Assembly: GCA_945913025.1 (NCBI GenBank)
Contig: CAMECJ010000003.1
Coordinates: 103,746 to 167,745 of the forward strand
Origin: an uncultured Elusimicrobia bacterium
Lineage (GTDB): Bacteria; Elusimicrobiota; Elusimicrobia; Elusimicrobiales; Elusimicrobiaceae
Reading direction: 5' to 3'
Length of the DNA stretch: 64,000 nucleotides
Shown here: positions 8,739-51,264 of the stretch, in pieces
Position numbering within the stretch: the stretch's first letter is position 1
Layout of the letters: each line of letters opens with the position of its first letter
The notes under the pieces: model-generated
What the model was told of the DNA's origin: nothing
Database searches by the model: none
What the model saw: the letters and a program-made list of their open reading frames with translations, nothing else
Program-made: the position numbers and the translations under genes

Positions 8739-8765
8739 AGTTTATCAAAAAAAAAAACAATACAA
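8739..8765 (-). promoter_or_regulatory. Poly-T-spacer promoter of pilin 2 (T11, 15-bp spacer)
   Basis: Minus strand TTGTAT-TG-T11-GA-TAAACT; A run at 8747-8757. Confidence 0.6.
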
Positions 8766-8807
8766 GCCCTCCCAAAAAACTCCGCTCAAATAAAGTACAA
8801 TATACCT

Positions 8808-10028
8808 ATGAAATTTGAACGATTTATTGCCGTGCGCTACCTTACGCGCCGCCAAGGGCTGTTCGCCTTTATCACCACACTGATCGGCGTGGCGGGCGTC
8901 AGCGTGGGCGTAGCCGCGCTTATTACCACTTTATCCGTTATGAACGGCTTTCAAACCGATATTAAAGACAAAATCATCGGCGCGCAAAGCCATATCCTCG
9001 TTTTCGGGCAGATGAGCAAGAAAACGTATCCCGAAAAAATGAAACAAATTGAACAAATCCCCTTGGTGGAAGCCGCCGCGCCGCATATTTACGGGCAGGG
9101 AATCATCACGTATGCTGGGCAAAGCTTGGGGCTTGTCGTACGCGGGCTGGATCCGGAACAGGAAAAGAAAATCAACACGTTGGCGGACTCGCTGACGGCG
9201 GGAACTTTTAACCCCAAAGACTGGGCGCAAGATGCGCCGCCGCCGCTCGTCTTAGGCACGGAACTGGCCGCCAATATGGGAGCGGACATCGGCGATGACG
9301 TAGTGCTGATTTCCCCCCAATCCATTTCCACCTCGGCGGGGATGTTTCCTAAAATGAAAAAATTCCGCATAAGCGGACTCCTTCGTACCGGATATTATGA
9401 ATTTGATAATACCATTGCCTATACGCTTCTGCCGCATGCCAGCGATTTTTTAGGTCTTAAACAAGGCGTAACAGGAGTGGCTGTAAAACTGAAAGATATT
9501 AACAAAGCCGACGAAGCCGCACGGGATATCCAAAACGCCATTGGCTACGGGTATTCCGTACGTACGTTCGCACAGATGAACAGCACGTTATACGCCGCCT
9601 TAAAACTGGAAAAAACAATGATGTTTATTATTCTGTTCCTCATTATCGGCGTAGCGTCGCTGAACATTGCGGGAAACCTGATTTTGCTCGGTACCGAAAA
9701 ACTGCGCGATATCGGTATTCTGCGCGCCATCGGCGCAAGCCCGAAGCTTATCCGTAAAGTATTTTTGTGGGAAGCAATGGTTATTGCTACATTGGGTATC
9801 GTGCTGGGATTGCTGTTGGCGTGTTTATTGTGTTGGATTATCGCCACGTTTCAAATTGTGGAACTTCCCGGGGATATTTATTACTTAACTAAAGTGCCGG
9901 TACGTATGCTGTGGGGCGATGTGCTGGCCGTCGTGGGCGGGAGTTATTTAATCTGCTTTGCCGCGGGACTGTATCCGGCGGTAAAAGCGTCGCGCGTACA
10001 CCCCACGGACGCTATCCGCTACGGGTGA
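8808..10028 (+). CDS. lolE: Lipoprotein-releasing ABC transporter permease (LolC/LolE family)
   Basis: SVMNGF, MacB-like periplasmic domain, EIGILRAIGA-type and LPGDIYY motifs. Confidence 0.9.
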   Translation: MKFERFIAVRYLTRRQGLFAFITTLIGVAGVSVGVAALITTLSVMNGFQTDIKDKIIGAQSHILVFGQMSKKTYPEKMKQIEQIPLVEAAAPHIYGQGIITYAGQSLGLVVRGLDPEQEKKINTLADSLTAGTFNPKDWAQDAPPPLVLGTELAANMGADIGDDVVLISPQSISTSAGMFPKMKKFRISGLLRTGYYEFDNTIAYTLLPHASDFLGLKQGVTGVAVKLKDINKADEAARDIQNAIGYGYSVRTFAQMNSTLYAALKLEKTMMFIILFLIIGVASLNIAGNLILLGTEKLRDIGILRAIGASPKLIRKVFLWEAMVIATLGIVLGLLLACLLCWIIATFQIVELPGDIYYLTKVPVRMLWGDVLAVVGGSYLICFAAGLYPAVKASRVHPTDAIRYG

Positions 10029-10035
10029 GAATACT

Positions 10036-10701
10036 ATGATAGAACTTGTACACTTAACCAAAATTTACGGCCAAGGCCAAGAAAACCTGTGCGTGCTGGA
10101 AGACGTTTCGCTGACGATCAGACGCGGAACATTTACAGTGCTTTTAGGCCCCAGCGGTTCGGGCAAAAGCACGCTTTTAAACTTAATCGCCATGTTGGAC
10201 GCGCCCACCTCCGGCAAAATTCTCGTAGACGGAATTGACGTTACCGCCATTAAAAGCGAATCCGCGCGGTCGGATCTGCGTCTTAAAAAAATGGGATTTG
10301 TATTCCAGTTTGACGGCCTGCTGCCCGAATTTTCCCTCTTGGAAAATGTGGATATGCCCGCCCTGATGCGCGGAACCCCCAAGCCCGAAAAAGCGCGGGA
10401 ACTGTTGGAAAAATTCGGCTTAGGCAAAATGACAGACAAACTGCCGGCAGATTTATCCGGCGGGGAAAAACAGCGCGCCAGTATCGCACGCGCGTTACGC
10501 AACGAACCGCCGATCTTGCTGGCAGACGAGCCCACGGGCAACCTTGACGCAGCGCGCAAGATCCAAGTGTTTGAAGATTTTGCCCGTATGAGTAAAGAAC
10601 ACGGGCTGACCACCGTTATGGTCACACATGATATGCACGCCTCCGAATACGCAGACGACGTATTTCAACTTGAAAACCGCAAACTGGTAAAAATCAAATG
10701 A
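10036..10701 (+). CDS. lolD: Lipoprotein-releasing ABC transporter ATPase
   Basis: GPSGSGKS, LSGGEKQR and LLADEPTGNLD motifs; follows lolE. Confidence 0.9.
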   Translation: MIELVHLTKIYGQGQENLCVLEDVSLTIRRGTFTVLLGPSGSGKSTLLNLIAMLDAPTSGKILVDGIDVTAIKSESARSDLRLKKMGFVFQFDGLLPEFSLLENVDMPALMRGTPKPEKARELLEKFGLGKMTDKLPADLSGGEKQRASIARALRNEPPILLADEPTGNLDAARKIQVFEDFARMSKEHGLTTVMVTHDMHASEYADDVFQLENRKLVKIK

Positions 10702-11663
10702 AAAAAACGCTTTTGTTGGCGCTCCTGTTGGCGGGCGCCGCTTTAAATGCCCCTGCCCGCCAAGCGCAAAAACCGTTCTTTCCGGCCGACAACTCCGCTG
10801 ACCGATTGGATACTTACGATGAACTTTACCAAAAAGAACAACGCAAAACAGCCAAACGCCGTTTTAAACAGCTTCGCGCCGAGGTACGCGGCGGTTACGC
10901 CGAATCCGCCAGAGAACTGGCGTGGGCCTATTATCGCGGCGAAGGTGTAAAAAAGAACGATAAAAAAGCCTATAAATATATGCAAAAAGCCGCACAAGCG
11001 GGAGATGCGGGCGCCGCCGTTATGCAAGGGGTTATGCTGGCGCACGGCAAAGGAGTCCGCCAAAACCTGCCGCTGGCCTGCGCGATTTTTAAGGAGCTTG
11101 TCCAAAACGATAATCCCCACGCAATGTTCCAACTGTACCGGTTGGCAAGCGGCTGCTCCGTTTCTGACGAAGAACAACAACGAATGTTAGACACGTCCGC
11201 CCGACGCGGCGTTGCTCCCGCATTATATGAAACAAGCCTTTTGACCTCCAACGACCCCGAACAAGCCTTCCGGTATATGGAACAAGCCGCCCGCTTGGAA
11301 TACCGCCCCGCACAATATGCGCTGGCCCGAATGTTCGAGGCCGGAAACGGTACGGAAATAAACCCCGCCAAGGCATTTGATTATATGCTGCTGGCCGCCA
11401 AACAAAACCTTCAAGAAGCACAGTGGCAAACCGCCCAATGGTACGAAGCGGGATACGGCGTCAAAAAGAGTCTGCCGCTGTCGTTTCACTGGACAAGAAA
11501 CGCTGCCAAAAACGGTGTAAAAGAGGCGCAAAAAAGACTGGCGGAAATGTACCGTACCGGCTACGGCGTGCCCGTTAATGCGGGGCAAGCCCGCAAGTGG
11601 GAAAAGAAAGCCGCCGCAAATGAACAAACTGCCGTCCGCCAAACTAAGGAGGAATTTTATTAA
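10698..11663 (+). CDS. Sel1/TPR-repeat exported protein
   Basis: Signal peptide; multiple AQxxLAxMYxxGxG repeats. Confidence 0.88.
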   Translation: MKKTLLLALLLAGAALNAPARQAQKPFFPADNSADRLDTYDELYQKEQRKTAKRRFKQLRAEVRGGYAESARELAWAYYRGEGVKKNDKKAYKYMQKAAQAGDAGAAVMQGVMLAHGKGVRQNLPLACAIFKELVQNDNPHAMFQLYRLASGCSVSDEEQQRMLDTSARRGVAPALYETSLLTSNDPEQAFRYMEQAARLEYRPAQYALARMFEAGNGTEINPAKAFDYMLLAAKQNLQEAQWQTAQWYEAGYGVKKSLPLSFHWTRNAAKNGVKEAQKRLAEMYRTGYGVPVNAGQARKWEKKAAANEQTAVRQTKEEFY

Positions 11664-12265
11664 TGCAAACCTTTCATCCCGTTGCGGCGGGAATATTGCT
11701 TTTATTAGCCTCCGCAACAGTACTGGTGTTATACACACGCTTCCGTAATCCGTTCAAACAAATTCTCCGCCACGCCCAGGCGGGCGAAGCGGACGCACAG
11801 TACCGTTTGGGCGTACTGTATTACCAAGGCATACACGCGCCGAAAAATTACGAACAGGCGTTTTTTTGGTTTCAAAAATCCGCCGAAAACGGTAACGCCC
11901 GCGCCATGACGGCTTTGGCCGGACTTTATAATGCGGGGCAAGGCTGCCGCAAGAATGAAACCCAGGCCTTCCGCAGCTACCAAACCGCCGCCGACTGGGG
12001 CGATTTGGAGGCCCGAATCAATTTGGCCGTCTGTTACCTGCAAGGCATCGGCGTCAGTAAAAACGAATCCGCAGGATTTGAAATCATGAAAGCCGCCGCA
12101 GATGACCACAGCCCCCTTGCCCAATTTCTAACAGCAGATCTATATGAGCGCGGATTTGGGGTGGAAAAGAATGACACTTTGGCGTTAAAATACTATATTT
12201 TAGCGGCCAAGCAAGGAGAACCGCGTTCCAAGGAAAGAATTAAAAAATTAAAAGCAAAAAAATAA
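11663..12265 (+). CDS. Sel1-repeat membrane-anchored protein
   Basis: N-terminal TM helix; AQYRLGVLYYQG-type repeats. Confidence 0.88.
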   Translation: MQTFHPVAAGILLLLASATVLVLYTRFRNPFKQILRHAQAGEADAQYRLGVLYYQGIHAPKNYEQAFFWFQKSAENGNARAMTALAGLYNAGQGCRKNETQAFRSYQTAADWGDLEARINLAVCYLQGIGVSKNESAGFEIMKAAADDHSPLAQFLTADLYERGFGVEKNDTLALKYYILAAKQGEPRSKERIKKLKAKK

Positions 12266-12284
12266 ACGGTTACGGAATTGATTA

Positions 12285-12320
12285 TTTGTAACGCCCCGAT
12301 TTTACTCGGGGCGTTACAAA
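12285..12320. terminator. Bidirectional terminator
   Basis: TTTGTAACGCCCCGA...TCGGGGCGTTACAAA. Confidence 0.75.
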
Positions 12321-12334
12321 CCGTATATAACGTC

Positions 12335-15300
12335 TTAATACACTAAGGACGATGAGGGGGCAGTTTCATCAGGCAAGAGCTCGTTTGTATCCGTTTCTGT
12401 GGGTGTAGTTTCTTCGGGCCCCTGCGCATTCCCATCTGTTTTCATGGAAAGTATAAGTACTTTTTGAAAAAGATTCCAATTCTGATCCTGTTGCGCTTTC
12501 TCCTCCCATTGCATCTCAAACTCCCATATTTTAAGCTGCATCTCTTCTAGCGTGCTTGAAGAACGATATGCTTCTTCAATCCCTGCACGCCATTCGTTCA
12601 AAAGAGGGGAGATATTTATATGAAACTCTTTTGCCAGATTTTCTAACTCATTAATCTGTATTTGAGAATTCACCAGCACTGCTTCCCGTTTAAATTGATT
12701 ATAGCGGGCAGATACTTGCGGGTCATCTACGGCAATACCTTTTTTCTGGAGCGTTTTCAAATCCGACAAAACGGATTGATAAATCTGATTTATCGGATTG
12801 AAAAGCGTTGCGTGCTGCTGTTCATCATAACCCCTCTCATATAGAGCGGTTACCGTATAGTACCAATTTTGATTCACCACAGTAAACAAGTCATTAAAGT
12901 TGAGTTCGTTGATTTTCAACTCAATTTCTTGACTCAACTGCATGAGCTTGACATTAAAATCTTCCCACGCGGCCAGAATCAGGTTATACTTCTCCACAAG
13001 CTCACCTTTGCCACGATATATCTGATTCACTTTTTCTGTGCAAGAATTAATTAACTGAGTTATTTTCCTATTCTCACGCTCAAAATTTCCGGCTTTCATT
13101 TGCTGTTTTAAGAGCTTAAAAGTCTTTTCGTTGTCTTTACGGACTTTCTCTAATTCCTCTATAACCTGGGCATATAGCTGATCTACGTTATTTTCCGCTA
13201 CACTCTCTTGATATTTGCGCACCATACGGTTGATTCTCAACTGATTCGCCTCTATTGCCAAACGTGACACTACACCTTCATTTCTAAACGGCGGTTGGAC
13301 AATTCCTGTTTTCGAAAGAGAATTCTGCACGCCCAAAGCAAGAAAACCCAAGCTAGCCCCTTGAGCAGGAGGTTCCGCAGCGGCACTCACGTCACTCAGC
13401 ACGGATATATCAGACGGCACAATTCCTTGTTCTTCGAGAAATGCAAGATTCTTTTCTACAGAGTTTGCATCTTCTTCCAACAGTTTAGGATCATACGCGT
13501 CCCCGAATTGTTTCTTGGAGCGTTCTACTTCTTCACGAATATTCTCATCCACATATCCCTGGAAAGGTCCACTCAACAACATATCGGTTACATTCATTCC
13601 GCCAAAGAAGGTGGTATTTTCAACTAAACGGCCCGTCCAGCGCTGTGAGAGTTCATAGGGAAATCCCAACACCCCAGTCTGCCCCGTACGCGATAAATGC
13701 ACGCTCAACTGTTCCGGAACAGCACCCCAGTTTTCCGCGCTGAAACCAAGTCCTGTGGATACCGGTGAAAAGTCAGCCGGCACTTCTCCCATATTGCGCG
13801 TAATTGCCAAAGATACCCCTTCCGGAGATTTAGGCAGCACAATCACGGAACTGGTAGAAGCTGACGATGCTAACTTGGCGTCATAGGCGGCACGGCTAGC
13901 CGGGTTTTTTAACGCGGAGTAAGCATTATTTAATTGTTTTGTCCACTCTTCACTTCCCATTCTGTCCGGATGCGCTTCAAGTACCTTTTTCTTGTATGCC
14001 CGCTTGATTTCTTTTTGTGTGGCATTTCTGCTTATCCCCAACAATTCATAATAATCGGGTACGACCTCTTTACCTGCCGCTTTCAAGCCATCGCCCAATT
14101 GCATAAATTCTTGTTGATTAATACGCACCCAGCCCGAGTCGGTATATTTCCAATAATCAAAAACACCTTTTCCGGTCTCTTTTGCCGCATCTTTTTGAAA
14201 AGCGCGGGCCGTCGCCCCCAACACACGTTTTTCATCGTAGATTTGGCCGGCAAAAGTTTGATAGCCGAATAACGGTTTAAGGCCGGCGTTCCACCATGAA
14301 GAAAAGGGTCTTAACGGTTCAAAAGCAGTCACTTGAGACAAGCGTCGTCCATCCTGCATACGGGCATTACGCATTAAATAGCGCCAGTCATCCCAGCTGC
14401 GAATACCAAATCTTAATCTTTCGGCTTTTGCACCCGACAGCGTTGCGGTATAAAAATTAAATCCGGGGCGATGTGCGGATACCGTCCATTCTTCTACGGG
14501 AGCGAGCTCTTTGCCCCACCAGCGGCGGTTGCGGAAACTCCGCATAGAATTTATAGGAGACATAGCCAATTCTTCCGCTGTAGTATACGACGGCTTATTC
14601 CACCAAGTTCGGAGCCTGCCCCACCAGCCCTGATTGGAAGCAGAGGAGACACCTGGTGCAGCTGATAAAGAAGGCGTGCTGAAAGCCGCAGACGAAGCCG
14701 GCAGCGGAGCTAAACGCAGGGCATTGGCGGGCGCTGCACCGGCCCCCGCAGCATTCTCTGCGGCAGTGATGGGCTTTCTCACTTTTTCCATACGGGCGGC
14801 AGCTACTGTTATTCCGTTCTCAGGCAGAACACGAGACAGGTTGGCGTAGCGGCTCCCCTTTAAGATTTCAATACTAAAGCTGAGTGAACGCCGGCCTTTA
14901 TTGGCATTCAAGGCCGCACGGGTTGCTTTTGGCAGCGCCAACATAGCCCCCCGTGTTACACGGTAAGCTCTGGCCAACAAAACAAAGACTTCTGCGCCAA
15001 TAACCCAAATCAGCACTTCTGCCGCAAATGTTAAGATTCCCATATCTAAATCGTTTTTTGCTTTATGCGGATTTTTCCCGTTGTACAGACTCATTTCAAT
15101 CCACTCGCCATTTGATTTACGACCCGCTCCATAAATTGTCCTCGGGGTACGTTCGCCGGCACCCCAGCCGTTACCATTATATTTCCAAGCCTCCAGCAGC
15201 AAAGGCGAATTAAGCGGACGCAAACGGGGAATTTCATTATATGTATTTTTAATTGTACTCAAGCCGCTCTTCGTCCGTGTAATATCGTGGTACAAGACCG

Positions 15301-16876
15301 GATCCCAGTCCGGATGTTCCAGTTTCAAATCAGCATTGGCAATCCTGTTGTAGATTAGCGCCAGTTTATCAGACAGCATCTGCATTTGGCTGAGGTCCAA
15401 CCCGTACGTTTCATAATCGGCGCTGTTCAACGAAGCATAAATATCTACCGTACGGGCGGCAACGGACAGTTGGGTGCCAAGAGGAATCGTAACCACCCTG
15501 TGAAATAATGCTGGAGCAGTAGGCGCCAAACTGTTTTGCTTAACCTGCTCCATTGTTTTCTGCCGTTCCTCTTCGGGTTGCTGCTGTATAAAAGCGCTAA
15601 TGGATTCTAATGCAAAAATGCGCGTAGGCAAAGAATATGTGTCCGGATCAGTAAAAGACACCAATAAACGTACCGTCTCTATATCTGTTGGAAGAGACGC
15701 GACGAAAGAAAACTGAAGATGTTCGCGAATCGTTTGAAAAACAACATTTAAAGCGGTGGTATAGTTCTGCAAAAACTTAGTAGATTTAGGCCCCTCATCA
15801 AAAATACGAACAATGCTTTCTATTGTTTTTGGTTGGTACAGAATGGCCGCTGTTACAGCAAACTCCGTCCACAGCGACATCTTGGAATACGCACTACTAT
15901 TTTCCTTAGGGTCTTTAGCGTGCAGCTTGTCAATTTCCTGCACAAAGCTCTGCATTATTTGATTATACAGATCGGAAGAGAAATACTGAAAGATCTGCGC
16001 TTCTCCGTCAGCTATGCTCCACGTTGCATCCGTTCCTTCCGGCCCTCGTCTTGCCAACAAAGGATTTTCCTTTCCGATACGTTCGTAGTACTGATTCACC
16101 TTCAGCAACAAGATCCGCAAAGTACCGATAGTCTGCATTTCTTCGACGCTCATTGCCTCAATAGATTGCTTCTTATTTTCAAGCGATCTTAAGCGGAAAA
16201 TAGCACGCAACTGCAATTCAAGCAAATCCATTGTTTCAATTACATTTAATTGGCCAGAGTCCAACGTATTACCCATAACCTCAGCCACCACAATAGAAAA
16301 ATTCAATTTGTCAGGAGTTCCCGGAAGTGGATCCAAGTATAACATCAGGTTTTCCCACGATTCTTCCGCTTTCGTAATACGGGTAATAAACTCGTCGGTT
16401 TCTCGTTTTTCGTCCTCCTTCGTTTTCTGCATCATGTACCCTTCATATTTAGGATTAATGAAGCAGGTATCCGGCAGGTACTGGGACGGCACCGCATCTT
16501 TATCTAGAGTATGAAGATCCGGCAAGCACTGAGGAAGCTCTTTCAAGAGATCTTCCCTCTCTGCCAACGACAAGGAAGAAACTGAAGCAGAGGGAAGCCT
16601 ATGCAGTTCAATTAATATCGGATACAATTCAAACACATCTTTTGCGTTCGCATATTCTTCCTTTAAGCGCGCCAGCTGTTGCTTTGGATCCGCCCGCGAT
16701 TCACCTACGGTTTTTTGAACTCTGTCTGTAAGTTCATCCAAATCGGTACTCAAAATCGTCCAATCCGGATCGTGAATGGTAAATGTTTTTTGGGCTAACA
16801 AATCCGTAGGAGCGAGAATGGTAAATGTAAAAACCAGAGCCATTATACGGCTTAACCATGCCATAGAAAACCTCAT
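12335..16876 (-). CDS. 1513-aa hypothetical exported protein with internal J-domain (about aa 941-999)
   Basis: Long ORF; N-terminal signal-like segment; DYYELLGI...AHPDR...LNNAYSAL J-domain; exact start uncertain. Confidence 0.8.
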   Translation of the reverse strand: MRFSMAWLSRIMALVFTFTILAPTDLLAQKTFTIHDPDWTILSTDLDELTDRVQKTVGESRADPKQQLARLKEEYANAKDVFELYPILIELHRLPSASVSSLSLAEREDLLKELPQCLPDLHTLDKDAVPSQYLPDTCFINPKYEGYMMQKTKEDEKRETDEFITRITKAEESWENLMLYLDPLPGTPDKLNFSIVVAEVMGNTLDSGQLNVIETMDLLELQLRAIFRLRSLENKKQSIEAMSVEEMQTIGTLRILLLKVNQYYERIGKENPLLARRGPEGTDATWSIADGEAQIFQYFSSDLYNQIMQSFVQEIDKLHAKDPKENSSAYSKMSLWTEFAVTAAILYQPKTIESIVRIFDEGPKSTKFLQNYTTALNVVFQTIREHLQFSFVASLPTDIETVRLLVSFTDPDTYSLPTRIFALESISAFIQQQPEEERQKTMEQVKQNSLAPTAPALFHRVVTIPLGTQLSVAARTVDIYASLNSADYETYGLDLSQMQMLSDKLALIYNRIANADLKLEHPDWDPVLYHDITRTKSGLSTIKNTYNEIPRLRPLNSPLLLEAWKYNGNGWGAGERTPRTIYGAGRKSNGEWIEMSLYNGKNPHKAKNDLDMGILTFAAEVLIWVIGAEVFVLLARAYRVTRGAMLALPKATRAALNANKGRRSLSFSIEILKGSRYANLSRVLPENGITVAAARMEKVRKPITAAENAAGAGAAPANALRLAPLPASSAAFSTPSLSAAPGVSSASNQGWWGRLRTWWNKPSYTTAEELAMSPINSMRSFRNRRWWGKELAPVEEWTVSAHRPGFNFYTATLSGAKAERLRFGIRSWDDWRYLMRNARMQDGRRLSQVTAFEPLRPFSSWWNAGLKPLFGYQTFAGQIYDEKRVLGATARAFQKDAAKETGKGVFDYWKYTDSGWVRINQQEFMQLGDGLKAAGKEVVPDYYELLGISRNATQKEIKRAYKKKVLEAHPDRMGSEEWTKQLNNAYSALKNPASRAAYDAKLASSASTSSVIVLPKSPEGVSLAITRNMGEVPADFSPVSTGLGFSAENWGAVPEQLSVHLSRTGQTGVLGFPYELSQRWTGRLVENTTFFGGMNVTDMLLSGPFQGYVDENIREEVERSKKQFGDAYDPKLLEEDANSVEKNLAFLEEQGIVPSDISVLSDVSAAAEPPAQGASLGFLALGVQNSLSKTGIVQPPFRNEGVVSRLAIEANQLRINRMVRKYQESVAENNVDQLYAQVIEELEKVRKDNEKTFKLLKQQMKAGNFERENRKITQLINSCTEKVNQIYRGKGELVEKYNLILAAWEDFNVKLMQLSQEIELKINELNFNDLFTVVNQNWYYTVTALYERGYDEQQHATLFNPINQIYQSVLSDLKTLQKKGIAVDDPQVSARYNQFKREAVLVNSQIQINELENLAKEFHINISPLLNEWRAGIEEAYRSSSTLEEMQLKIWEFEMQWEEKAQQDQNWNLFQKVLILSMKTDGNAQGPEETTPTETDTNELLPDETAPSSSLVY

Positions 16877-16972
16877 AATATATATAAAAGTCTTTCTATT
16901 TATTATAGCTGTTTTTACACAATTTCCCAGGAGAAAAAAGCCCTATTTCCATATAGGCCGAAAGTCCTATAT

Positions 16973-17008
16973 AAAAAAGCCAAGGGTCCGGCAAAGCGGA
17001 CCCTTGGC
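16973..17008 (-). terminator. Terminator after the phoH-like gene
   Basis: GCCAAGGGTCCG...CGGACCCTTGGC with an adjacent A6 tract. Confidence 0.75.
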
Positions 17009-17024
17009 CTTCAAGCAAAAACAC

Positions 17025-18350: not shown

Positions 18351-18482
18351 AGTCGCCTCTCTGTGCGCCGGACGGCGCCGTTACTATTAGTATAGGTCTG
18401 TTTCCGACGAAAATCAAGGGATTCCCCCGCCGAAGGACTCCGGCTTGTGCATATTTTAGCATTAATTGGTATAAATATATAT

Positions 18483-20843: not shown

Positions 20844-20857
20844 CCGAATTCGTTCCG

Positions 20858-21764: not shown

Positions 21765-21765
21765 A

Positions 21766-23779: not shown

Positions 23780-24295
23780 TTACAGTTTGGGAATTGCCAT
23801 CACTTTACCGCTGCCCGAACCGCCCAAAGATTTGCACAAATACACGCCAAGTTTACTGTTATACATTACCACACATTGATCGTCGTCCCAAGTAAAGATA
23901 CGCTGTACAACCACATGCGGCGAATAATAAAAATCAAGCCGCCAACCGCCGTCTTGTTGTAACACATAACGGATATTTTTACTCGGATAACTGACCTGCG
24001 TAAAATTTTCCCCTTTTTCGACGGTTCCGCCGGACGGCAGCGTCACGTCCAGCGAGTCCAAATCCGCAGTATAGGTTCCGTTGGCAATTTTATATACCTC
24101 TTCGGCGTTGACGATACTTTTCCCCACAAGAAGCCCCTCGGCCAACCGAGCTTTGGCTACCGCTTTTTGGTATTGCGGCAGCGCGACAGAAGACAAAATG
24201 CCAATAATCAAAACAACAACCAACAGCTCAATTAACGTAAAACCTTTTTTACTGGATTCCGTGTCCACGTCCGGAATGACATCATTTTTATACAT
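23780..24295 (-). CDS. Type IV pilin-like protein 3
   Basis: MYKNDVIPDVDTESSKKG|FTLIELL...LPQYQKAV. Confidence 0.9.
   Translation of the reverse strand: MYKNDVIPDVDTESSKKGFTLIELLVVVLIIGILSSVALPQYQKAVAKARLAEGLLVGKSIVNAEEVYKIANGTYTADLDSLDVTLPSGGTVEKGENFTQVSYPSKNIRYVLQQDGGWRLDFYYSPHVVVQRIFTWDDDQCVVMYNSKLGVYLCKSLGGSGSGKVMAIPKL
24251..24280 (-). repeat. 30-bp half element inside the pilin 3 leader
   Basis: GTCATTCCGGACGTGGACACGGAATCCAGT, read as VIPDVDTESS. Confidence 0.7.
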
Positions 24296-24457: not shown

Positions 24458-24483
24458 ATGTTATCAAAAAAAAAACGGGTCAA
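24458..24483 (-). promoter_or_regulatory. Poly-T-spacer promoter of pilin 3 (T10, 14-bp spacer)
   Basis: TTGACC-CG-T10-GA-TAACAT; A run at 24466-24475. Confidence 0.75.
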
Positions 24484-32655: not shown

Positions 32656-32668
32656 ATTATTTTCCACA

Positions 32669-33145
32669 TCAATACATGGGATAATACAAAGTGCTTACAG
32701 CCGGGTCTTTGGGGCCGTAGGAACGGCACAGTTTTTCGCCCGCCGGAGTTAGTGGATTACACATAATTTTATCGTACAAAGGAGTATTTGGGGAAAGCCA
32801 GCCGTTAATTTGGTAATCGTTGGTTAAACGTTGGCAATCAAAATGAAAAGAGGGATCCGTACCTGACTGGTGAATATAAATGTGGAAATTTTTAGTGTAT
32901 AGGTGCTGGCCGGACGCGCCGACGGAAGAGATATCCAACTCATCAAAACTTTCCGCGTACCGCCCATTAGCCATATAATATACTTTTTGCGCGTTCATGA
33001 ATGCCCGTACAAGTGTTACCGCCTCCGACGCGCGGGATTTCTCCACCGCCAGCGTATACTGTGGCAGCGCAACAGCCGCTAAAATACCGATAATTAAAAC
33101 GACTACTAACAGCTCGATAAGCGTAAATCCGCGTTTTTTATGCAT
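32669..33145 (-). CDS. Type IV pilin-like protein 4
   Basis: MHKKRG|[24 protein letters not shown]. Confidence 0.92.
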   Translation of the reverse strand: MHKKRGFTLIELLVVVLIIGILAAVALPQYTLAVEKSRASEAVTLVRAFMNAQKVYYMANGRYAESFDELDISSVGASGQHLYTKNFHIYIHQSGTDPSFHFDCQRLTNDYQINGWLSPNTPLYDKIMCNPLTPAGEKLCRSYGPKDPAVSTLYYPMY

Positions 33146-33181: not shown

Positions 33182-33209
33182 ATGTTATCAAAAAAAAAAA
33201 ACGGGTCAA
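33182..33209 (-). promoter_or_regulatory. Poly-T-spacer promoter of pilin 4 (T12, 16-bp spacer)
   Basis: TTGACC-CG-T12-GA-TAACAT; A run at 33190-33201. Confidence 0.8.
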
Positions 33210-39976: not shown

Positions 39977-40050
39977 GTCCCGTTCGTCTAGTGGTCCAGG
40001 ACGCCGCCCTCTCAAGGCGGAGATCACGAGTTCGAATCTCGTACGGGACG
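39977..40050 (+). tRNA. tRNA-Glu(CTC); CCA not encoded
   Basis: GTCCCGTTCGTCTAGTGG...CCGCC-CTCTCAA-GGCGG...GAGTTCGAATCTC. Confidence 0.95.
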
Positions 40051-40096
40051 TTTTTTTATATCTCCGTCCGGCCAACGGACGGAAAAAGGGGGTTGT

Positions 40097-41149: not shown

Positions 41150-41169
41150 ACAGAGATGCTCTTTTTACG

Positions 41170-41204
41170 AAATCCGCCTTTCCGTTTCGGAAGGCGGATT
41201 TTTT
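41170..41204 (+). terminator. Terminator
   Basis: AAATCCGCCTT...AAGGCGGATTTTTT. Confidence 0.75.
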
Positions 41205-41282
41205 CTACTCCATTTTTTCCATACAGGAAAAACGCCGAATTTTATATAATTTGAATATATATTTTGACAGGGGAGAAATTGA

Positions 41283-43838: not shown

Positions 43839-43843
43839 TCTTC

Positions 43844-43869
43844 GTCCTTTTCTGGAAACAGAAAAGGAC
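43844..43869 (+). terminator. Hairpin after glgP
   Basis: GTCCTTTTCTG/GAAA/CAGAAAAGGAC. Confidence 0.6.
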
Positions 43870-43893
43870 CAAAAGATTTGCAGCCGTAAAACA

Positions 43894-43977
43894 AAAATGA
43901 ACAGCCGGAAGGGTATTTTTTAAACTCGCTACGCTCAAACATAAAAAATACATTTACCTTCCGGCTTTGTTCATTTT
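43894..43977. repeat. Long imperfect palindrome with AAACTCGCTACGCTCAAACA core
   Basis: Arms AAAATGAACAGCCGGAAGG...CCTTCCGGCTTTGTTCATTTT. Confidence 0.7.
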
Positions 43978-44342
43978 AAAACGTTCTAATGGCTGCATTA
44001 AACAGCAGAACGGCTTTCTAAACGTTTTAATGATTGCCGTAAACGGCCTTTAGTGTCGTCATTGCGCTACACAAAAACTTCTGACAATTTAACGAAGCAA
44101 ATTATATTATTGTACGTTTTTGTGTGTAGTTTGCGGTTTTGCCCGAGTGCCGTGTACGGCACAACTGAAAAATAAGCGAAGTAAATTTTAAGTATTTGAG
44201 CAATTCCGAGGAAATCTTTATTTTCTTGAAGCCGCCGCGTACTGAAAGACAGCCGCTTGCGGCGCGGTACGCAAGGTAAACAAAAAATAAAAAGTTACCG
44301 GAATTTAACAAATCGTATCATACCAACACAACTAAAAACATT

Positions 44343-44801
44343 ATGCTGAATATCGTACTCGTAAACCCCGAAATCCCCTTTAACACCGGCAACATCGGGC
44401 GTTCCTGCGTTGCCACCGGCACGCGGCTGCACTTGGTCGGTAAACTGGGTTTTAAAATTGCCTCCAAAGAAATCCGCCGTTCGGGCCTTGATTATTGGCC
44501 CAATTTGGATTACCGCCGCCACGAAACGTGGGAAGATTTTTTAAACGATGAAAATCCGGCTCAAGAAAATATGTTTTTTCTTTCTACCAAAGGAACGCAG
44601 GCGTATTGGGACGCGCAAATTCCGGACGGAGCATACCTCATTTTCGGAGCCGAATCGTGCGGCCTGCCTAAAGACTTTTACGAACGCTATAAAAGCCGCC
44701 TTTTTACCATTCCGATGAGCGGCCCCGTGCGCTCACTCAACTTATCTTCTTCGGCCGCGATTGTTCTTTTCGAAGCGATCCGTCAAAACCGCGCAAAATA
44801 A
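44343..44801 (+). CDS. trmL: tRNA (cytidine/uridine-34-2'-O)-methyltransferase
   Basis: PEIPFNTGNIGR, RSGLDYW, FGAES and RSLNLS motifs. Confidence 0.93.
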   Translation: MLNIVLVNPEIPFNTGNIGRSCVATGTRLHLVGKLGFKIASKEIRRSGLDYWPNLDYRRHETWEDFLNDENPAQENMFFLSTKGTQAYWDAQIPDGAYLIFGAESCGLPKDFYERYKSRLFTIPMSGPVRSLNLSSSAAIVLFEAIRQNRAK

Positions 44802-44849
44802 ATAGCTGATAACCAATATCTTACGGCACAGCGGGATTCACGAGATATC

Positions 44850-44884
44850 AAAGAAGCCCCAACTCAACATTGGGGCTTCTTTTT
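44850..44884. terminator. Bidirectional terminator between trmL and pilin 5
   Basis: AAAGAAGCCCCAA...TTGGGGCTTCTTTTT. Confidence 0.8.
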
Positions 44885-44919
44885 CGGAACAATAAAAACT
44901 AATCCATTCGGTAATAAGT

Positions 44920-45441
44920 CTAAGCTCCGCAAGAAGAACTGCCACAAGACGAACCACCCCCGCTTCCCTCGGCATAACAAGTTGATACACCGCAATTTGC
45001 GCCACGAATGCAGATGTTTGAATCCGAAGTGGAAAGGGCAAAACCGATTTTCTCACAGCCCAACCCGCCACTACAAGACCGGCGGCCGGTTTTGGCGTTT
45101 AACCATAAGTCCAAAGCACTGGGTTGCAAACGAGCGCCAAAAACAATCGGATGAAGTGAATTATTGCAGTTTACCTCTCCCCAATAACGCAGATTTTTAG
45201 ATTCTTTTACCTCAACAGCTAACGCGGAGGAGAGCTCGGCGGCGTCGTTGCCATAGAACGACCCGCTGGGGTTTTCTAAACAATACGCATTGGCAGCCAT
45301 ATTCAGCGTTTTCAAATTCGGCCACGCTTCCGCCGCACGGCTTCTCAGTAATGCTTTTTGGTACTGCGGCAACGCTACCGATGACAATATGCCAATAATA
45401 AGCACAACAACCAATAATTCAATCAAGGTAAAACCTTTCAT
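44920..45441 (-). CDS. Type IV pilin-like protein 5
   Basis: MKG|FTLIELL start at 45441; paralog of pilin 2; Gly/Ser/Cys tail. Confidence 0.88.
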   Translation of the reverse strand: MKGFTLIELLVVVLIIGILSSVALPQYQKALLRSRAAEAWPNLKTLNMAANAYCLENPSGSFYGNDAAELSSALAVEVKESKNLRYWGEVNCNNSLHPIVFGARLQPSALDLWLNAKTGRRSCSGGLGCEKIGFALSTSDSNICIRGANCGVSTCYAEGSGGGSSCGSSSCGA

Positions 45442-45557
45442 ATCATTTCTCTTATCGAAAAAAGTTACCCTACAGTGTTTCAGCTCAAGAGCTGCCTTTT
45501 TTGACAAAATAAACCATCAAAGGGTGATTCCACACAGAAACACCACGAGATACCCCT

Positions 45558-45583
45558 ATCGTATCAAAAAAACAACGGGTCAA
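45558..45583 (-). promoter_or_regulatory. Promoter of pilin 5 with interrupted tract (TTG-T7, 14-bp spacer)
   Basis: TTGACC-CG-TTGTTTTTTT-GA-TACGAT. Confidence 0.7.
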
Positions 45584-45613
45584 GGCCCAGAGGCAGGGGG
45601 GCGCATTAAGGGG

Positions 45614-45641
45614 TTGACCCGTTTTTTTTTTTTGATACCAT
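45614..45641 (+). promoter_or_regulatory. Poly-T-spacer promoter of pilin 6 (T12, 16-bp spacer)
   Basis: TTGACC-CG-T12-GA-TACCAT; T run at 45622-45633. Confidence 0.8.
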
Positions 45642-45677
45642 AGGAATAATTCCTGTATAAGAGGGGGGATATATCCC

Positions 45678-46157
45678 ATGCATAAAAAACGCGGATTTAC
45701 GCTTATAGAGCTGTTGGTAGTCGTTTTAATTATTGGTATTTTAGCGGCTGTTGCGCTGCCGCAGTATCAGAAGGCGGTTGCCAAGGCACGATTTTCCGAA
45801 TATATTCAACAGGCATCAGCCCTTCGTCGTGCGCAGGAAGTATATTTTATGGAAAATGGCACATACGCTAATAATTTGGATGATTTGGATATGGATATCT
45901 TGGGCAAATGTGCAATGCAGAGTGATAAATCTATTATGACCTGTCCGTATGCGTGGGTAGACAATATTGTTGGTAGTTCAGTTACTTCGCAGACCAGCTC
46001 TGTACTATATAAATTTTCTGTAGGCGGCTTGCAAAATGCAATGCTTTCTCCAGATGTGCAGGTAGTCTTTTATTTCGCAAATTCTGATCGGCCTAATCAA
46101 ATCGTTTGTAGTCCGTATTCAAGCCTTGGTAAGAATTTATGCAGTTCTTTCCAATAA
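45678..46157 (+). CDS. Type IV pilin-like protein 6
   Basis: MHKKRG|FTLIELL; first 30 aa identical to pilin 4. Confidence 0.92.
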
Positions 46158-46203
46158 ATATCCCTAAATGTACCCGCAGAATTTTTTCTTTTTCGTTTAA
46201 ACT

Positions 46204-46542
46204 TCATGCGGCGGCCGCGGCCAAAAGCGCCGCAAAAAACGCCACAATCGCTCCGCCAAAAAAGATAAGCAGCAAGATAGGTATCAGCGCAGCGAATACC
46301 GTCAGCCAGCCGCATACTCCCGCCCACAAAGCAGTTTTGCGCGCTTCTTCCGTGCGTCCTTCCAGTTTTAAGTCCTGCGTGCGCAGCGACAAAATCAGCG
46401 CGGCCAGCGCCAGCGGAATCGTCCAAAACCCCGTGAAGCAAGATAAAATTACCGCCGTTACCGCCAACGTAAAGTGTTCGTTTATGCCCGCTTTTGGACA
46501 GGCAAGACAGCTGTCCTGCGTGTTTTTGTTTTCATTCTCCAT
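46204..46542 (-). CDS. CD225/dispanin-like small membrane protein
   Basis: EHFTLAV..VILSCF..FW.IPLALAA...S...A.K.A.W pattern; start MENEN. Confidence 0.6.
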   Translation of the reverse strand: MENENKNTQDSCLACPKAGINEHFTLAVTAVILSCFTGFWTIPLALAALILSLRTQDLKLEGRTEEARKTALWAGVCGWLTVFAALIPILLLIFFGGAIVAFFAALLAAAAA

Positions 46543-46650
46543 AAACCCCCCTTTCCGGTTGGCAGCTGAACCGGCGCGTTGGGCGCGCTCTGCCCTAGCC
46601 AAACGGTTTCATATTATATAAAATATACCTTACACAGGGAGCTATTTTAT

Positions 46651-46932
46651 ATGGAAATAACAAAAAAAGACGTAGAAGTGGCGGCCAAACTCGCCAAAAT
46701 GCGGGTAAGTGAACAGGAAACCGCCGTGTATGAGGCCCAACTGGAGGCTCTTTTTAATTGGGTAAAAGAATTGTCCTCCGTCAATACGGACGGCGTAGAG
46801 CTTTCCAATGTCAATTTATCCGCGCACGTGCGCGCCGACGAACCGGTAACTGACGAAAAACGCGCCGCCCTGCTGCGCGCTGATTTTAACGCCAGTTTAG
46901 ACGACTGCGCCAAAGTAAAGAAGGTACTCTGA
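46651..46932 (+). CDS. gatC: Asp/Glu-tRNA amidotransferase subunit C
   Basis: AAKLAKM, RADE and KVKKVL motifs; directly precedes gatA. Confidence 0.88.
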   Translation: MEITKKDVEVAAKLAKMRVSEQETAVYEAQLEALFNWVKELSSVNTDGVELSNVNLSAHVRADEPVTDEKRAALLRADFNASLDDCAKVKKVL

Positions 46933-48347
46933 TGATGACCGTAGAGCAAATTGTACACGCTTTTAAATCCGGCGAAAAATCCGCCGAAGAAATTACCCGC
47001 GGCTGTTTGGCCGTAATCGCCGAGAAAAATCCGGAAATTAACGCTTTTGTGGAAGTGTTTGAAGCGGACGCGCTGTCGCGCGCCAAAGAATTAGACGAAA
47101 AACGCGCGCGCGGCGAAGAGCTGGGCGCTTTGGCGGGCGTACCCGTGGCGATTAAAGACAATATCCTTTACAAAGGGCACAAAGCCACCTGCTGTTCCAA
47201 AATGTTGGAAAACTATGTAGCTTCCTATACGTCTACCGTGGTGGAAAAACTGCTGGCCGCGGGCGCGGTGATTATCGGCCGCACCAATATGGACGAATTT
47301 GCTATGGGCAGCACCAACCAAACCTCCGTGTACGGCCCCGTTAAAAATCCGGTGAATACCGAATGTGTCCCGGGGGGCTCTTCGGGCGGAAGTGCGGCGG
47401 CTGTGGCAGCGGGTATGGTTCCCGTTTCTCTGGGTACCGACACGGGCGGATCCGTCCGTCAGCCTGCCGGATTCTGCGGCGTTGTGGGCATTAAACCCGG
47501 GTACGGGCGCATTTCCCGCTACGGGGTAATTGCGTTTGCGTCCAGCGCGGACCAAGTGGGTGTAATCGCCGGAAACGTAAAAGACGCGGCCACCGTTTTG
47601 GAAGTGCTGGCGGGGAGAGACGCGCACGATTCCACCTCGCTTGAATCTCCCGTGCCGGCGTATGCGTCGCTGCTTGCCAAAGATTTAAAAGGCGTTAAAA
47701 TCGGCTTGCCGAAAGGTTTTTTGGATGGCCTTGGCGACGACATTAAACAAAGAGTAACTGAAGCCGCCCGCGCGCTTGAAAAGCAGGGCGCGCAGCTGGT
47801 GGACGTGGACGTTCCGCATGCCAAATACGCGGCCCCGTGCTACTATATTATTACGAGCGCGGAGGCCAGCTCCAACTTGGGCCGCTACGACGGGATTCGT
47901 TACGGTTATGCCGACAAGTCCGCTACAGATTTAAACGCCTATTATGAAGAATCCCGCGCGCCGTTCGGACTGGAGGTTAAGAAACGTATTATTATCGGTA
48001 CGTTCGCGCTGACTTCCAAAAATTATGAAGAATGTTTTTTAAAAGCGATGAAAGTGCGCGAACTGATCCGCGAAGATTTTAAAAAAGCGTTCGAACAGGT
48101 AGACGTGCTGTTAACGCCTACATCGCCCACGACGGCCTTTAAATTGGGACATCACGATGAAGATCCGCTGGCGCTGTATCTGGCGGATTTGTATACGTGC
48201 CAGGGGAATATCGGCGGTTTGGCGGGGATCAGCGTGCCGTTCGGAAAGGATAAAAACGGGCTGCCCGTCGGCGTGCAGTTTTACGGGCCGATTCTGCAGG
48301 AAGAAAAAATCTTAAACGCGGCGTATCACTTAGAGCAAAACGTATGA
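46932..48347 (+). CDS. gatA: Asp/Glu-tRNA amidotransferase subunit A
   Basis: AIKDNI, GRTNMDEFAMGS, GGSSGGS, GTDTGGSVRQP and KKRIIIG motifs. Confidence 0.97.
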   Translation: MMTVEQIVHAFKSGEKSAEEITRGCLAVIAEKNPEINAFVEVFEADALSRAKELDEKRARGEELGALAGVPVAIKDNILYKGHKATCCSKMLENYVASYTSTVVEKLLAAGAVIIGRTNMDEFAMGSTNQTSVYGPVKNPVNTECVPGGSSGGSAAAVAAGMVPVSLGTDTGGSVRQPAGFCGVVGIKPGYGRISRYGVIAFASSADQVGVIAGNVKDAATVLEVLAGRDAHDSTSLESPVPAYASLLAKDLKGVKIGLPKGFLDGLGDDIKQRVTEAARALEKQGAQLVDVDVPHAKYAAPCYYIITSAEASSNLGRYDGIRYGYADKSATDLNAYYEESRAPFGLEVKKRIIIGTFALTSKNYEECFLKAMKVRELIREDFKKAFEQVDVLLTPTSPTTAFKLGHHDEDPLALYLADLYTCQGNIGGLAGISVPFGKDKNGLPVGVQFYGPILQEEKILNAAYHLEQNV

Positions 48348-48793
48348 TCGTTTCCGAATTTTCGTGCGGCGGCGTGATTTTGGATGGGCGCAAAGTATTG
48401 CTCGTTCAAGTCAAGAATATGAAGGGAAAGAAAATCTGGACCTTTCCCAAAGGCCATATTGAAGCGGGGGAAACGCCCCGTCAGGCCGCGCTGCGCGAAG
48501 TATTGGAAGAAACGGGATATAAAGCCGTTATCGTGCGGCCGATGATTCGCGTAAAATACGCGTTTACGTTCCAGGGAAATTACATTAAAAAGATGGTGCA
48601 GTGGTATCTGATGAAAAAACTGGGGCGGATTGGCAAGCACGACGCGTCGGAAATTTTGGCGATACGCTGGGTGTCTTTATTAAAAGCGCGCGAATTGGTG
48701 CAGTATCCGAGCGATATCCGTCTGGTGGATATGTTGTTGGCGTCCTTACACATCGAGCCAGCCGAAGAACCCGAAACAGATGGGACGGAATAA
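48344..48793 (+). CDS. NUDIX hydrolase
   Basis: FPKGHIEAGETPRQAALREVLEETG Nudix box. Confidence 0.92.
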   Translation: MIVSEFSCGGVILDGRKVLLVQVKNMKGKKIWTFPKGHIEAGETPRQAALREVLEETGYKAVIVRPMIRVKYAFTFQGNYIKKMVQWYLMKKLGRIGKHDASEILAIRWVSLLKARELVQYPSDIRLVDMLLASLHIEPAEEPETDGTE

Positions 48794-48818
48794 CAACTGA
48801 TGTTAACTGACGTTTTAC

Positions 48819-48854
48819 GCACAAGGAACGAAAAGATTTTTTCGTTCCTTGTGT
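48819..48854. terminator. Long hairpin between NUDIX and pilin 7
   Basis: CACAAGGAACGAAAA/GATT/TTTTCGTTCCTTGTG. Confidence 0.65.
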
Positions 48855-48934
48855 CTTTTAAGGATAAACAATTTTCCAAAATCTGCCGTCTTGCGCGTAC
48901 CTTGGGGCTTACGTAATTTTTTGATAAAAACAAA

Positions 48935-49396
48935 TTAATTGAACCTCATTACATAAGATTCACCGGATAATTCAAACCCGATATTCTCACACAGTTTTTG
49001 GTTGTCGGCCAGCTCTGTACCCGAAGCGGGAATACAAGTCATTTCCGTTAAGTCTCCGTTGGTATTGGTTGCGTCAAGCGCATATTCGCCGCTTTTGCGG
49101 GAAAGCGTAATGACTACCGATGTTGCACTCCCGCTTTTTACCGTGGGATCAGAAAAATAAACGGATTTTGTAAAATCCCCCGTTATCTTTTCCGCCGCCG
49201 AATAAGACGGATAACTGTTGCCGTTTATAATATAGCGCGTGTTTACAAAATCGCTCGCGGCGCGCAAATTGTTTATCCCCTCCAGCGCGCGGCCGCGTTC
49301 CATAGAGATGTAATACTTTGGCAGCACAATCGTCACAAGCACCCCTACCAATACCATTACAATTAACAATTCAATGAGCGTAAATCCCTTTTTCAT
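48935..49396 (-). CDS. Type IV pilin-like protein 7 (divergent subtype, no poly-T promoter)
   Basis: MKKG|FTLIELLIVMVLVGVLVTIVLPKY; GGAGG RBS. Confidence 0.88.
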   Translation of the reverse strand: MKKGFTLIELLIVMVLVGVLVTIVLPKYYISMERGRALEGINNLRAASDFVNTRYIINGNSYPSYSAAEKITGDFTKSVYFSDPTVKSGSATSVVITLSRKSGEYALDATNTNGDLTEMTCIPASGTELADNQKLCENIGFELSGESYVMRFN

Positions 49397-49497
49397 AAGT
49401 CCTCCCGAAAGATACTTTATTATATAAATTTGACGGGTATTTTAACAGAGAACACTTTTTTTCCGGCACAATGCGCTTTATTTTATAGAATATCCGT

Positions 49498-50691
49498 ATG
49501 AACGCCAAAAAACTGTTTTGGATTCTGTTTCTGCTAAACCTGCTTAATTATATCGACAGACAGGTACTCTATTCTGTTTTTCCGCTTTTACATCAAGATT
49601 TAAAGCTGACGGACCTGCAGCTCGGCTCCCTGGCCTCCGCCTTTATGCTGGTATATATGTGCTGTGCGCCGATCATCGGCTTTTGGGCGGACCGCGCGCC
49701 ACGGCAAAAATTAGTTTCCGCCAGCGCCTTCGTCTGGAGCACCGCCACCTTGTTATGCGCCGCCGCCGGGAACTACGCAGGGCTGTTGGCGGCGCGCAGT
49801 TTTATCGGTGTGGGGGAAGCGGGATTTACTACCATCGCCCAGCCTTTTTTGGCGGAACAATATCCCACCCAAAAACGTGCCACCGTGTTGGCGATCTTCG
49901 GGCTCGCGCTTCCATTGGGCAGCGCGCTGGGATATCTGCTTGGCGGCATGGCCGGGCAGCACTGGGGGTGGCAAGCCGCTTTTCTGTTGGCGGGGGCGCC
50001 GGGTGTTGTGCTCGCTTTTTTGGCAGCAACACAGCTGCAGGATTCCGCTCGCCGTCATATCCCTGCCGCAAACCGTCCGGCATGGCGCGATTACCGCGCT
50101 CTGCTGACCGACAAACCGTTTTTATGGATATGCCTCGCCCATGCCATGATTACGTTTGTACAGGGCGGGTTTTCGGCCTGGATGCCGACGTATTTTCACC
50201 GTTATTTTGACTTTACCGTCGCCCAGGCGGGTACCGTATTTGGGGCGATTGTCGTGATTTGCGGGGCGGCGGGCACATTTTTGGGCGGGAAACTGGCGGA
50301 CCGGCTGCTTTCCCAAACACCGAAAGCATATTTTATCACTATTTTTGCGGGGATTTTACTTATGCTCCCCTGCGCCGCGGCCGCTTTGTACGCGCCGAAC
50401 GGTACGCTGGGCATTATTTTTATCGGCCTGGCGGTATTATGTATTTTCCTGCCGATGGGCCCTGTAGCGGCCGCCCTGGTGGCATTAAGCAAACCGTCCG
50501 TGCGTTCCATGGCGTTTGCGTTCAACATTTTTATCATTCACGCACTAGGAGATGCTTTATCCCCTATACTCATCGGGCGCGCCTCGGACGCATGGGGCCT
50601 GAAAACCGCACTGCTGCTAGCCTGCGCCGCCTTACTGCCGGGGTTATTGTTTACCGCGCTGTCCGCAAACAAGCAACGCGCCAAACATTAA
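49498..50691 (+). CDS. MFS transporter (spinster-like)
   Basis: LNYIDRQ, WADR.PR and GVGEA motifs; about 12 TM helices. Confidence 0.9.
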
Positions 50692-51182
50692 TTTTGCGAC
50701 CAGCACCGGCAGGAGCCGCTACAAGCACTTCGTCCTTCACCGCCAAACAAACCCTTACACAGATCAGAATTTTTGTAATTATATGCCGCATAAGCACAGC
50801 AAGCTGCTTTTTGAGTGGAAAAGCGTATCTCGTAAAAAATGTTTACGTAAAAATCCCAGCACCCCACCCTGTCTGGCGGAGTATCGAGCTTATCATAGTT
50901 TAAAGAACACGATCCCGTTTTCAAAAGAACACTTTGTGTTTTGTCTTGGGTGGTATTGGCAAAACTGATATCCAATTCATCTAAATTCATTGCATAAGCG
51001 CCGTTGGCCATATAATACCGCTGCTGCGCATCAGACAAGTTGCGCGCGGTAGTAACAATCTGCATAAAGCGCGATTTCTTCACTGCTTTTTCGTATTGTG
51101 GCAGAGCTACAGCCGACAAAATACCAATAATTAAAACGACAACTAACAGCTCTATAAGCGTAAACCCGCATTTTTGATTCAT
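50688..51182 (-). CDS. Type IV pilin-like protein 8
   Basis: MNQKCG|FTLIELL...LPQYEKAV; stop overlaps the MFS stop by 4 bp. Confidence 0.9.
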
Positions 51183-51236
51183 AAGATTATCCCTTAAACC
51201 GATATCACAAAATAAATGTTAATTGGAATTATTCTT

Positions 51237-51264
51237 AATATATCAAAAAAAAAAAACGGGTCAA
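51237..51264 (-). promoter_or_regulatory. Poly-T-spacer promoter of pilin 8 (T12, 16-bp spacer)
   Basis: TTGACC-CG-T12-GA-TATATT; A run at 51245-51256. Confidence 0.78.

Follow-up and report, generated by a model that had tools for sequence, protein, structure and literature searches.

The closest known system to the one described here is the vlp family of Mycoplasma hyorhinis, in which each paralogue reportedly carries a poly-A tract in the spacer between the -35 and -10 promoter boxes. Next in likeness come porA and opc of Neisseria, fim2 and fim3 of Bordetella, and sabA of Helicobacter pylori. In Neisseria meningitidis porA, opc, and fetA, a poly-G/C tract lies in or beside the promoter spacer, and the length of this homopolymer sets the -35/-10 spacing, with graded (high, intermediate, or no) expression of the surface protein. 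The fimbrial subunit promoters of Bordetella pertussis fim2 and fim3 are said to contain poly-C tracts, the poly-T tract of H. pylori sabA reportedly works as a "rheostat," and a T-rich -16 region has reportedly been found in sigma70 promoters of Campylobacter jejuni. Here, we analyzed a 64-kb stretch of DNA (hereafter the window; contig C3, positions 103746-167745) from the 1.76-Mb, 27-contig genome of an uncultured gut bacterium of the Elusimicrobiales lineage of Elusimicrobia (G000), in which poly-T tracts occupy the apparent -35/-10 spacer of six dispersed prepilin-type genes. Literature searches on pilins, type IV pili, and phase variation in Elusimicrobia yielded no description of this system.

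The architecture of these promoter modules is that of classical promoter-spacer contingency loci, with one pure tract for each surface-structure gene. As in vlp, individual paralogues of a surface-protein multigene family each have a separate A/T homopolymer within the promoter spacer, so independent variation would be possible, and neither a recombinase nor silent cassettes would be involved. The vlp genes, however, are a few lipoprotein genes clustered at one locus, and their switching was demonstrated experimentally, whereas at least 77 dispersed type IV pilin-like loci are present here, in a diderm inhabitant of the gut from a different phylum, with an extended -10 element and predicted switching. 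The Neisseria tracts consist of G/C, belong to single genes, and have measured expression classes; those described here consist of T, extend over a whole family, and have an effect that we infer. Like fim2 and fim3, the genes in question are predicted to encode filament subunits at separate loci with a promoter homopolymer each, but the Bordetella tract is located between the site for the activator (BvgA) and the -10 box, whereas the tract here separates a consensus -35 box from an extended -10 element and we know of no activator. The sabA gene also has its poly-T tract in or near the promoter, and its output is tuned in steps; that tract is situated upstream of the -35 box rather than within the spacer. 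As in the Campylobacter promoters, the T run leads into TGnTAnnnT, but the T-rich region of Campylobacter does not form a pure hypermutable run and is combined with a weak -35 box, whereas here the -35 box is near consensus. The proposed switch would be of a known kind, with novelty residing in the phylum, the scale (~5% of the genes), the pairing of poly-T with an extended -10 element, and a compensation between linker and tract lengths.

Only five A/T runs of 10 or more nucleotides are present in the window, and the next longest run length is 8 (positions of all features are collected in Table 1). Read on the coding strand of the neighboring prepilin gene, each of the five runs is part of a module of the form cTTGACC-CG-T(n)-GA-TAnnnT, with one module deviating in its -35 region; a sixth module has an interrupted tract. 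An earlier note on this DNA had listed these six modules, had seen by eye no other A/T run of this length, and had assigned a module to six of eight pilin-like genes; its coordinates, tract lengths, and spacer lengths were all correct on recount, and the other two statements were also confirmed. Judged from the window alone, ten-T windows showed only a mild enrichment over shuffled sequence (12 vs 5.3). Eight prepilin-type genes are located in the window. Seven of the eight ORFs (open reading frames) submitted to Pfam matched N_methyl, and the eighth (46139-46621) is not a pilin; the remaining prepilin-type gene was recognized from a motif scan only. The genome encodes one prepilin peptidase and four T2SSE-type ATPases. 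With their N-terminal prepilin motif and with processing and assembly machinery encoded, the window genes appear to be type IV pilins or pseudopilins.

Genome-wide, 77 modules were identified, with tracts of T12 (48 modules), T11 (22), T10 (5), and T13 (2), so that each has a pure homopolymer of at least ~9 nucleotides between the -35 and -10 boxes, as in promoter-spacer contingency loci. The sequence logo of these 77 modules reads rGGsC-TTGACC-CG-T(10-13)-GA-TAnnnT-rGGG-wTA. A G precedes the tract in 76 modules, GATA and the last T of the -10 box (position +8) are invariant, TTGAC is found in at least 64, and a GGG discriminator follows the -10 box. An A is conserved at position +15 in 68 of the 77 modules, and transcription probably starts at this residue, 7 nucleotides downstream of the -10 box. 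The last T of the run together with the invariant G creates TGn, an extended -10 element. A promoter scan independently returned a 16-nucleotide spacer with TG ahead of the second hexamer for the modules at 33182 and 45614. The module thus reads as a sigma70-type extended -10 promoter with the T run as its spacer; the earlier note had proposed the sigma70-type promoter and the placement of the run, which the logo and the scan support, but it overlooked the extended -10 element. We also considered the T run as part of an intrinsic terminator and rejected this reading: no terminator-like hairpin abuts the run in the promoter scan, about 10 nucleotides of -35 box would intervene between any upstream stem and the T tract, and the tract is oriented toward the gene downstream.

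The distribution of A/T runs in the genome is bimodal (131 of length 8, 4 of length 9, 5 of length 10, 22 of length 11, 48 of length 12, and 2 of length 13), and every run of 10 or more belongs to a module. Prepilin motifs occur within 700 nucleotides downstream of 73 of the 77 modules, which serve 73 of the 102 prepilin genes (Fisher p ~1e-96 among ~1600 genes, ~6% of which are prepilin genes); the enrichment upstream of pilin genes that had been anticipated is therefore borne out. Since homopolymer lengths are bimodal and nearly all modules precede prepilin motifs, the genome-wide picture is far from chance. Ahead of pilin genes across the genome, the 77 pure tracts are accompanied by a single interrupted one, which is that in the window. 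Module-bearing genes make up ~5% of all genes. The same module precedes genes for non-pilin exported proteins at C1:27289, C2:32521, and C8:94031 (713, 175, and 382 residues, respectively). The 175- and 382-residue proteins are paralogues, a Pfam scan of the 713- and 382-residue proteins gave no match, and the non-pilin targets that were checked have N-terminal hydrophobic, signal-like segments. The module shows specificity for genes encoding pilins and exported proteins, and its targets appear to be surface or exported structures.

Relatives were scanned with variable-length patterns, the exact T10 pattern being too narrow for this purpose. Of the genomes sampled, 57 of 77 in the genus and 7 of 30 in a sister genus contain the motif G-T(10-13)-GATA, with up to ~119 module copies per genome. 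The remaining families of the order essentially lack it: in one family, 2 of 80 genomes gave a single hit each, and in another, neither of the 2 genomes gave any. A control with the reversed pattern gave approximately zero hits. An exact-pattern scan of species genomes recovered only uncultured Elusimicrobiales and Candidatus Avelusimicrobium metagenome-assembled genomes (MAGs) from the gut, together with a few contigs from a bin titled Muribaculaceae bacterium. The latter contigs (L088, L124, and L140) carry the exact Elusimicrobia module and are probably the result of mis-binning.

Across species, the same modal spacing is reached by four combinations of linker and tract. G128 has a 1-nucleotide linker with T13 (TTGACT-G-T13), G000 and G097 have a 2-nucleotide linker with T12, G064 and G199 have a 3-nucleotide linker with T11 (TTGACA-TCG-T11), and G154 has a 4-nucleotide linker with T10 (TTGCnn-AATG-T10 and TTGACT-TCCG-T10); in each case the two boxes are 16 bp apart. 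The only module of G000 with a 3-nucleotide linker carries T11. Because the linker compensates for tract length across species, the 16-bp spacing is under selection and TTGAC is a genuine -35 box. Since 16 bp is the selected spacing, T12 rather than T13 is most likely the working state in G000; the earlier proposal that T13 is optimal and T12 weak finds no support in these combinations. Other arrangements were also seen: four modules of G000 have 4-nucleotide linkers with T11-T12 and spacers of 17-18 bp, and at C4:87236 in strains L056, L057, L059, L062, and L063, TTGACT-TTCG replaces TTGACC-CG and is combined with T13 to give a 19-bp spacer.

Tract lengths were compared with those in gut-metagenome contigs of the same species, which were found by exact-protein look-up of neighboring housekeeping genes and have flanks 98.5-99.96% identical to G000; further look-ups of this kind retrieved no contigs. 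Nine of 11 orthologous loci were polymorphic in tract length, with both gains and losses between strains, a pattern compatible with reversibility. Pairwise alignments totaling 208 kb (0.66% mismatches) contained 24 module tracts, of which 16 differed in length, compared to 4 of 491 control A/T runs (0 of 392 of length 6, 4 of 81 of length 7, all four from a single inherited locus, and none of 18 of length 8). Around 8747, 7220 aligned bases contained 3 mismatches and only one indel, that in the tract. Tract length therefore varies between close relatives far more than control homopolymers do, as expected for contingency loci and as the earlier note had predicted from slipped-strand mispairing; the tracts are mutable. 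MutS and MutL are both encoded in the genome, so any instability is local rather than a product of global hypermutation. The modal length was found at ~90% of loci in G154 (T10), 80-87% in G064 and G199 (T11), and 62% in G000 (T12); this T10-to-T12 trend, with the highest share at the shortest tracts, is predicted by slippage. In G128 (T13 mode), ~61% of loci were at the mode, no lower than for T12, and G099 was split, with 43% of loci at 16 bp and 41% at 15 bp. Contig breaks at modules in fragmented MAGs were considered as a possible sign of heterogeneity and rejected, the contigs starting at the upstream edge of a repeated cassette and thus reflecting repeats. The strain contigs also revealed changes in the pilin gene at window positions 32656-33045: in L039, L042, L043, and L047, its variable C-terminal part is an unrelated allele between flanks that are ~99% identical, and in L037 the identical pilin stands behind a different upstream flank. 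These arrangements suggest recombination at a constant cassette of promoter and N terminus.

Long homopolymers are prone to sequencing and assembly errors, and at several loci G000 is one T off from three other assemblies, as would be seen if the length differences were artifacts. However, assemblies made independently from short reads of separate samples share the same tract alleles (four have T10 at 33190, three have T12 at 8747, and two, in addition to G000, have T10 at 24466), shorter homopolymers agree at all but one locus over the 208 kb, and two-base differences are common. On the strength of the replicated alleles and clean control homopolymers, we rejected this explanation, which we regard as very improbable. 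Another account holds that the module is kept only by descent or gene conversion in a recently expanded, recombining family, with a constant cassette consisting of the promoter, the 5' untranslated region (UTR), and the first 30 codons, or else that it is the site of some regulator; the T run would have no role in spacing. Near-identical promoter-UTR-N-terminus cassettes are indeed shared by some paralogues, one strain has the same pilin behind another upstream flank, and GGG..C upstream of the -35 box makes a partial palindrome with GACCC. Yet conservation of the module extends over most of the genus and part of the sister genus despite differing flanks, UTR classes, and coding regions, and the compensation that holds 16 bp is unexplained by descent or conversion alone. 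We therefore consider this account improbable.

The reading that we favor, with moderate confidence, is that tract slippage varies promoter strength gene by gene. According to this model, each module would be a strong sigma70-type promoter for a single gene encoding a pilin-like or exported protein. The pure T10-T13 run would slip at replication, and as the promoter thereby gained or lost T at high frequency, the -35/-10 spacing would depart from the selected 16 bp or return to it. The outcome would be a heritable, reversible, gene-by-gene change in transcription, with T12 as the working state in G000 and T11, T10, and T13 as down-shifted states. Reversal within a population and a benefit from combinatorial surface variation are likewise expected under this model. 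The effect is likely that of a dial between full and low expression, or possibly ON/OFF, and the TGn extended -10 element may buffer changes in spacing and so favor the dial. Several points weigh against the model. Tract-less candidate promoters in intergenic DNA of G000 peak at 17 bp (24, vs 6 at 16 bp), so that the "ON" length is deduced from conservation only; this histogram was confined to intergenic DNA, the genome-wide version being dominated by codon periodicity. A few modules have 17-19-bp spacers (4-nucleotide linker with T11-T13) and depart from a strict 16-bp rule, the strain comparisons represent non-independent events, and the extended -10 element may tolerate spacers of 14-17 bp, in which case changes in length would have little effect. 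Mutation-selection balance around a constitutive optimum could account equally well for the ~60% of loci at the mode. With regard to the generic 17-bp optimum, DNA in long runs of T is overwound compared with mixed sequence, and this overwinding could reconcile the 16-bp mode with it.

The main rival to switching treats the T run as an invariable structural component of a family promoter with constitutive, high output, either as a rigid overwound spacer or as a T-rich "-16 region" leading into TGn as in Campylobacter sigma70 promoters, and regards length polymorphism as unavoidable, mildly harmful noise of little regulatory consequence. The sharp conservation of the 16-bp mode across species, the presence of most loci at that mode, and the invariant TG of the extended -10 element are consistent with such a role. 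Departures from the mode are scattered and peculiar to individual strains, as recent mutations from a ground state would be, and the existence of lineages with T10 and longer linkers indicates that mutability is not maximized everywhere. Mixed sequence would nevertheless serve spacing and AT-richness while remaining stable, yet pure runs of 10 or more T have been retained at ~77 loci here, at up to ~119 per genome elsewhere, and in most of the genus and part of the sister genus. The proportion of off-mode loci, 38% in G000 and above one half in G099, would be a considerable burden if such states were deleterious, and if spacing is under selection, changes in length must alter output, which would already constitute heritable variation in expression. 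We judge this structural role rather unlikely, while giving it considerably more weight than the accounts based on artifact or on descent.

Table 1. Modules and prepilin-type genes of the window, and tract lengths in G000 compared with strains of the same species (positions without a contig prefix refer to the window)
Feature	Position	Strand	Remarks
Promoter module TTGTAT-TG-T11-GA-TAAACT	8739-8765	-	Tract 8747-8757; 15-bp spacer
Promoter module TTGACC-CG-T10-GA-TAACAT	24458-24483	-	Tract 24466-24475; 14-bp spacer
Promoter module TTGACC-CG-T12-GA-TAACAT	33182-33209	-	Tract 33190-33201; 16-bp spacer, TG before -10
Promoter module, interrupted tract TTGTTTTTTT	45558-45583	-	14-bp spacer; back to back with the 45614 module
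Promoter module TTGACC-CG-T12-GA-TACCAT	45614-45641	+	Tract 45622-45633; 16-bp spacer, TG before -10
Promoter module TTGACC-CG-T12-GA-TATATT	51237-51264	-	Tract 51245-51256; 16-bp spacer
Prepilin-type gene without module, long conserved structured leader instead	4573-5136	+	Pfam N_methyl; upstream comparison
Prepilin-type gene, long leader	7976-8698	-	Behind the 8739 module; Pfam N_methyl E=1.3e-07, residues 83-106
Prepilin-type gene	23780-24295	-	Behind the 24458 module; Pfam N_methyl E=2.7e-08
Prepilin-type gene	32669-33145	-	Behind the 33182 module; Pfam N_methyl E=3.8e-10; weak ComP_DUS and Pilin_GH matches
Prepilin-type gene, start MKGFTL	44920-45435	-	Behind the 45558 module; Pfam N_methyl E=5.5e-05
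Prepilin-type gene	45678-46157	+	Behind the 45614 module; Pfam N_methyl E=4.4e-10
Prepilin-type gene without module	48935-49396	-	Prepilin motif scan; upstream sequence inspected
Prepilin-type gene	50688-51182	-	Behind the 51237 module; Pfam N_methyl E=9.5e-09
Tract, strain comparison	8747		T11 vs 12, 12, 12
Tract, strain comparison	24466		T10 vs 10, 12, 10
Tract, strain comparison	33190		T12 vs 12, 12, 12, 10, 10, 10, 10
Tract, strain comparison	C4:92653		T12 vs 11, 12
Tract, strain comparison	C4:87236		T12 vs mostly 13 (with 4-nucleotide linker)
Tract, strain comparison	C4:82623		T11 vs 12, 12, 12
Tract, strain comparison	C2:107659		T12 vs 12
Tract, strain comparison	C2:111820		T13 vs 11, 11, 11
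Tract, strain comparison	C2:186002		T12 vs 12
Tract, strain comparison	C2:192294		T10 vs 12, 12, 12, 11, 12
Tract, strain comparison	C2:198020		T11 vs 12, 12

About 10 prepilin genes that lack the poly-T module have a different conserved leader of ~200 nucleotides ahead of the ribosome-binding site, located at 4358-4566 in the window and at about nine further sites (e.g., C1:162071, C2:156049, C4:23985, C9:5234, and C10:20964). Its recurring blocks are CCAAAAACAGTCG..., CACGGCTGTT, and CGGCCGTTTTT. Rfam gave no family match for this leader, which could be an undescribed cis-regulatory RNA of a second class of pilin genes. Downstream of most modules lies a member of a small set of conserved 5' UTR classes (8600-8735 and 45440-45555 in the window; ~35 modules genome-wide). 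The commonest class starts with GGGTTATTCCGTAGGGTTTCTGT.CGGGATCTCCCGATT and holds a hairpin-forming palindrome, and pieces related to this palindrome are also translated inside long pilin leader peptides. An Rfam search of the window returned transfer RNAs only, and the conserved 5' UTRs are explained by no known RNA family. The small contigs C13, C16, C18-C24, C26, and C27 have G+C contents of 38-42%, compared to 46-51% for the large ones, and contain no modules; they may represent contamination or mobile elements in the bin.

More tentatively, and as a possibility that we hold with less assurance than the slippage model itself, gut Elusimicrobiaceae may have the largest known repertoire of promoter-located contingency loci, with ~77-119 individually switchable promoters per 1.4-1.8 Mb (~5% of genes), an enormous combinatorial display of pilus or pseudopilus subunits and exported proteins by a clonal population, and tracts and linkers that co-evolve to hold a 16-bp "on" spacing. 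Such a display, if true, could serve against phages or host immunity. The compensation between linker and tract across species provides a clean natural experiment on promoter spacing, and homopolymer calls at module sites in MAGs should be handled with caution, as they carry biological information. If the tracts do switch expression, only a slippery promoter spacer would be needed for gene-by-gene variation, and small-genome gut commensals would spend about 1 gene in 20 on stochastic surface variation. Switching would also address why Elusimicrobia hold dozens to a hundred pilin-like genes, a question that becomes directly testable from existing metagenomes and metatranscriptomes.

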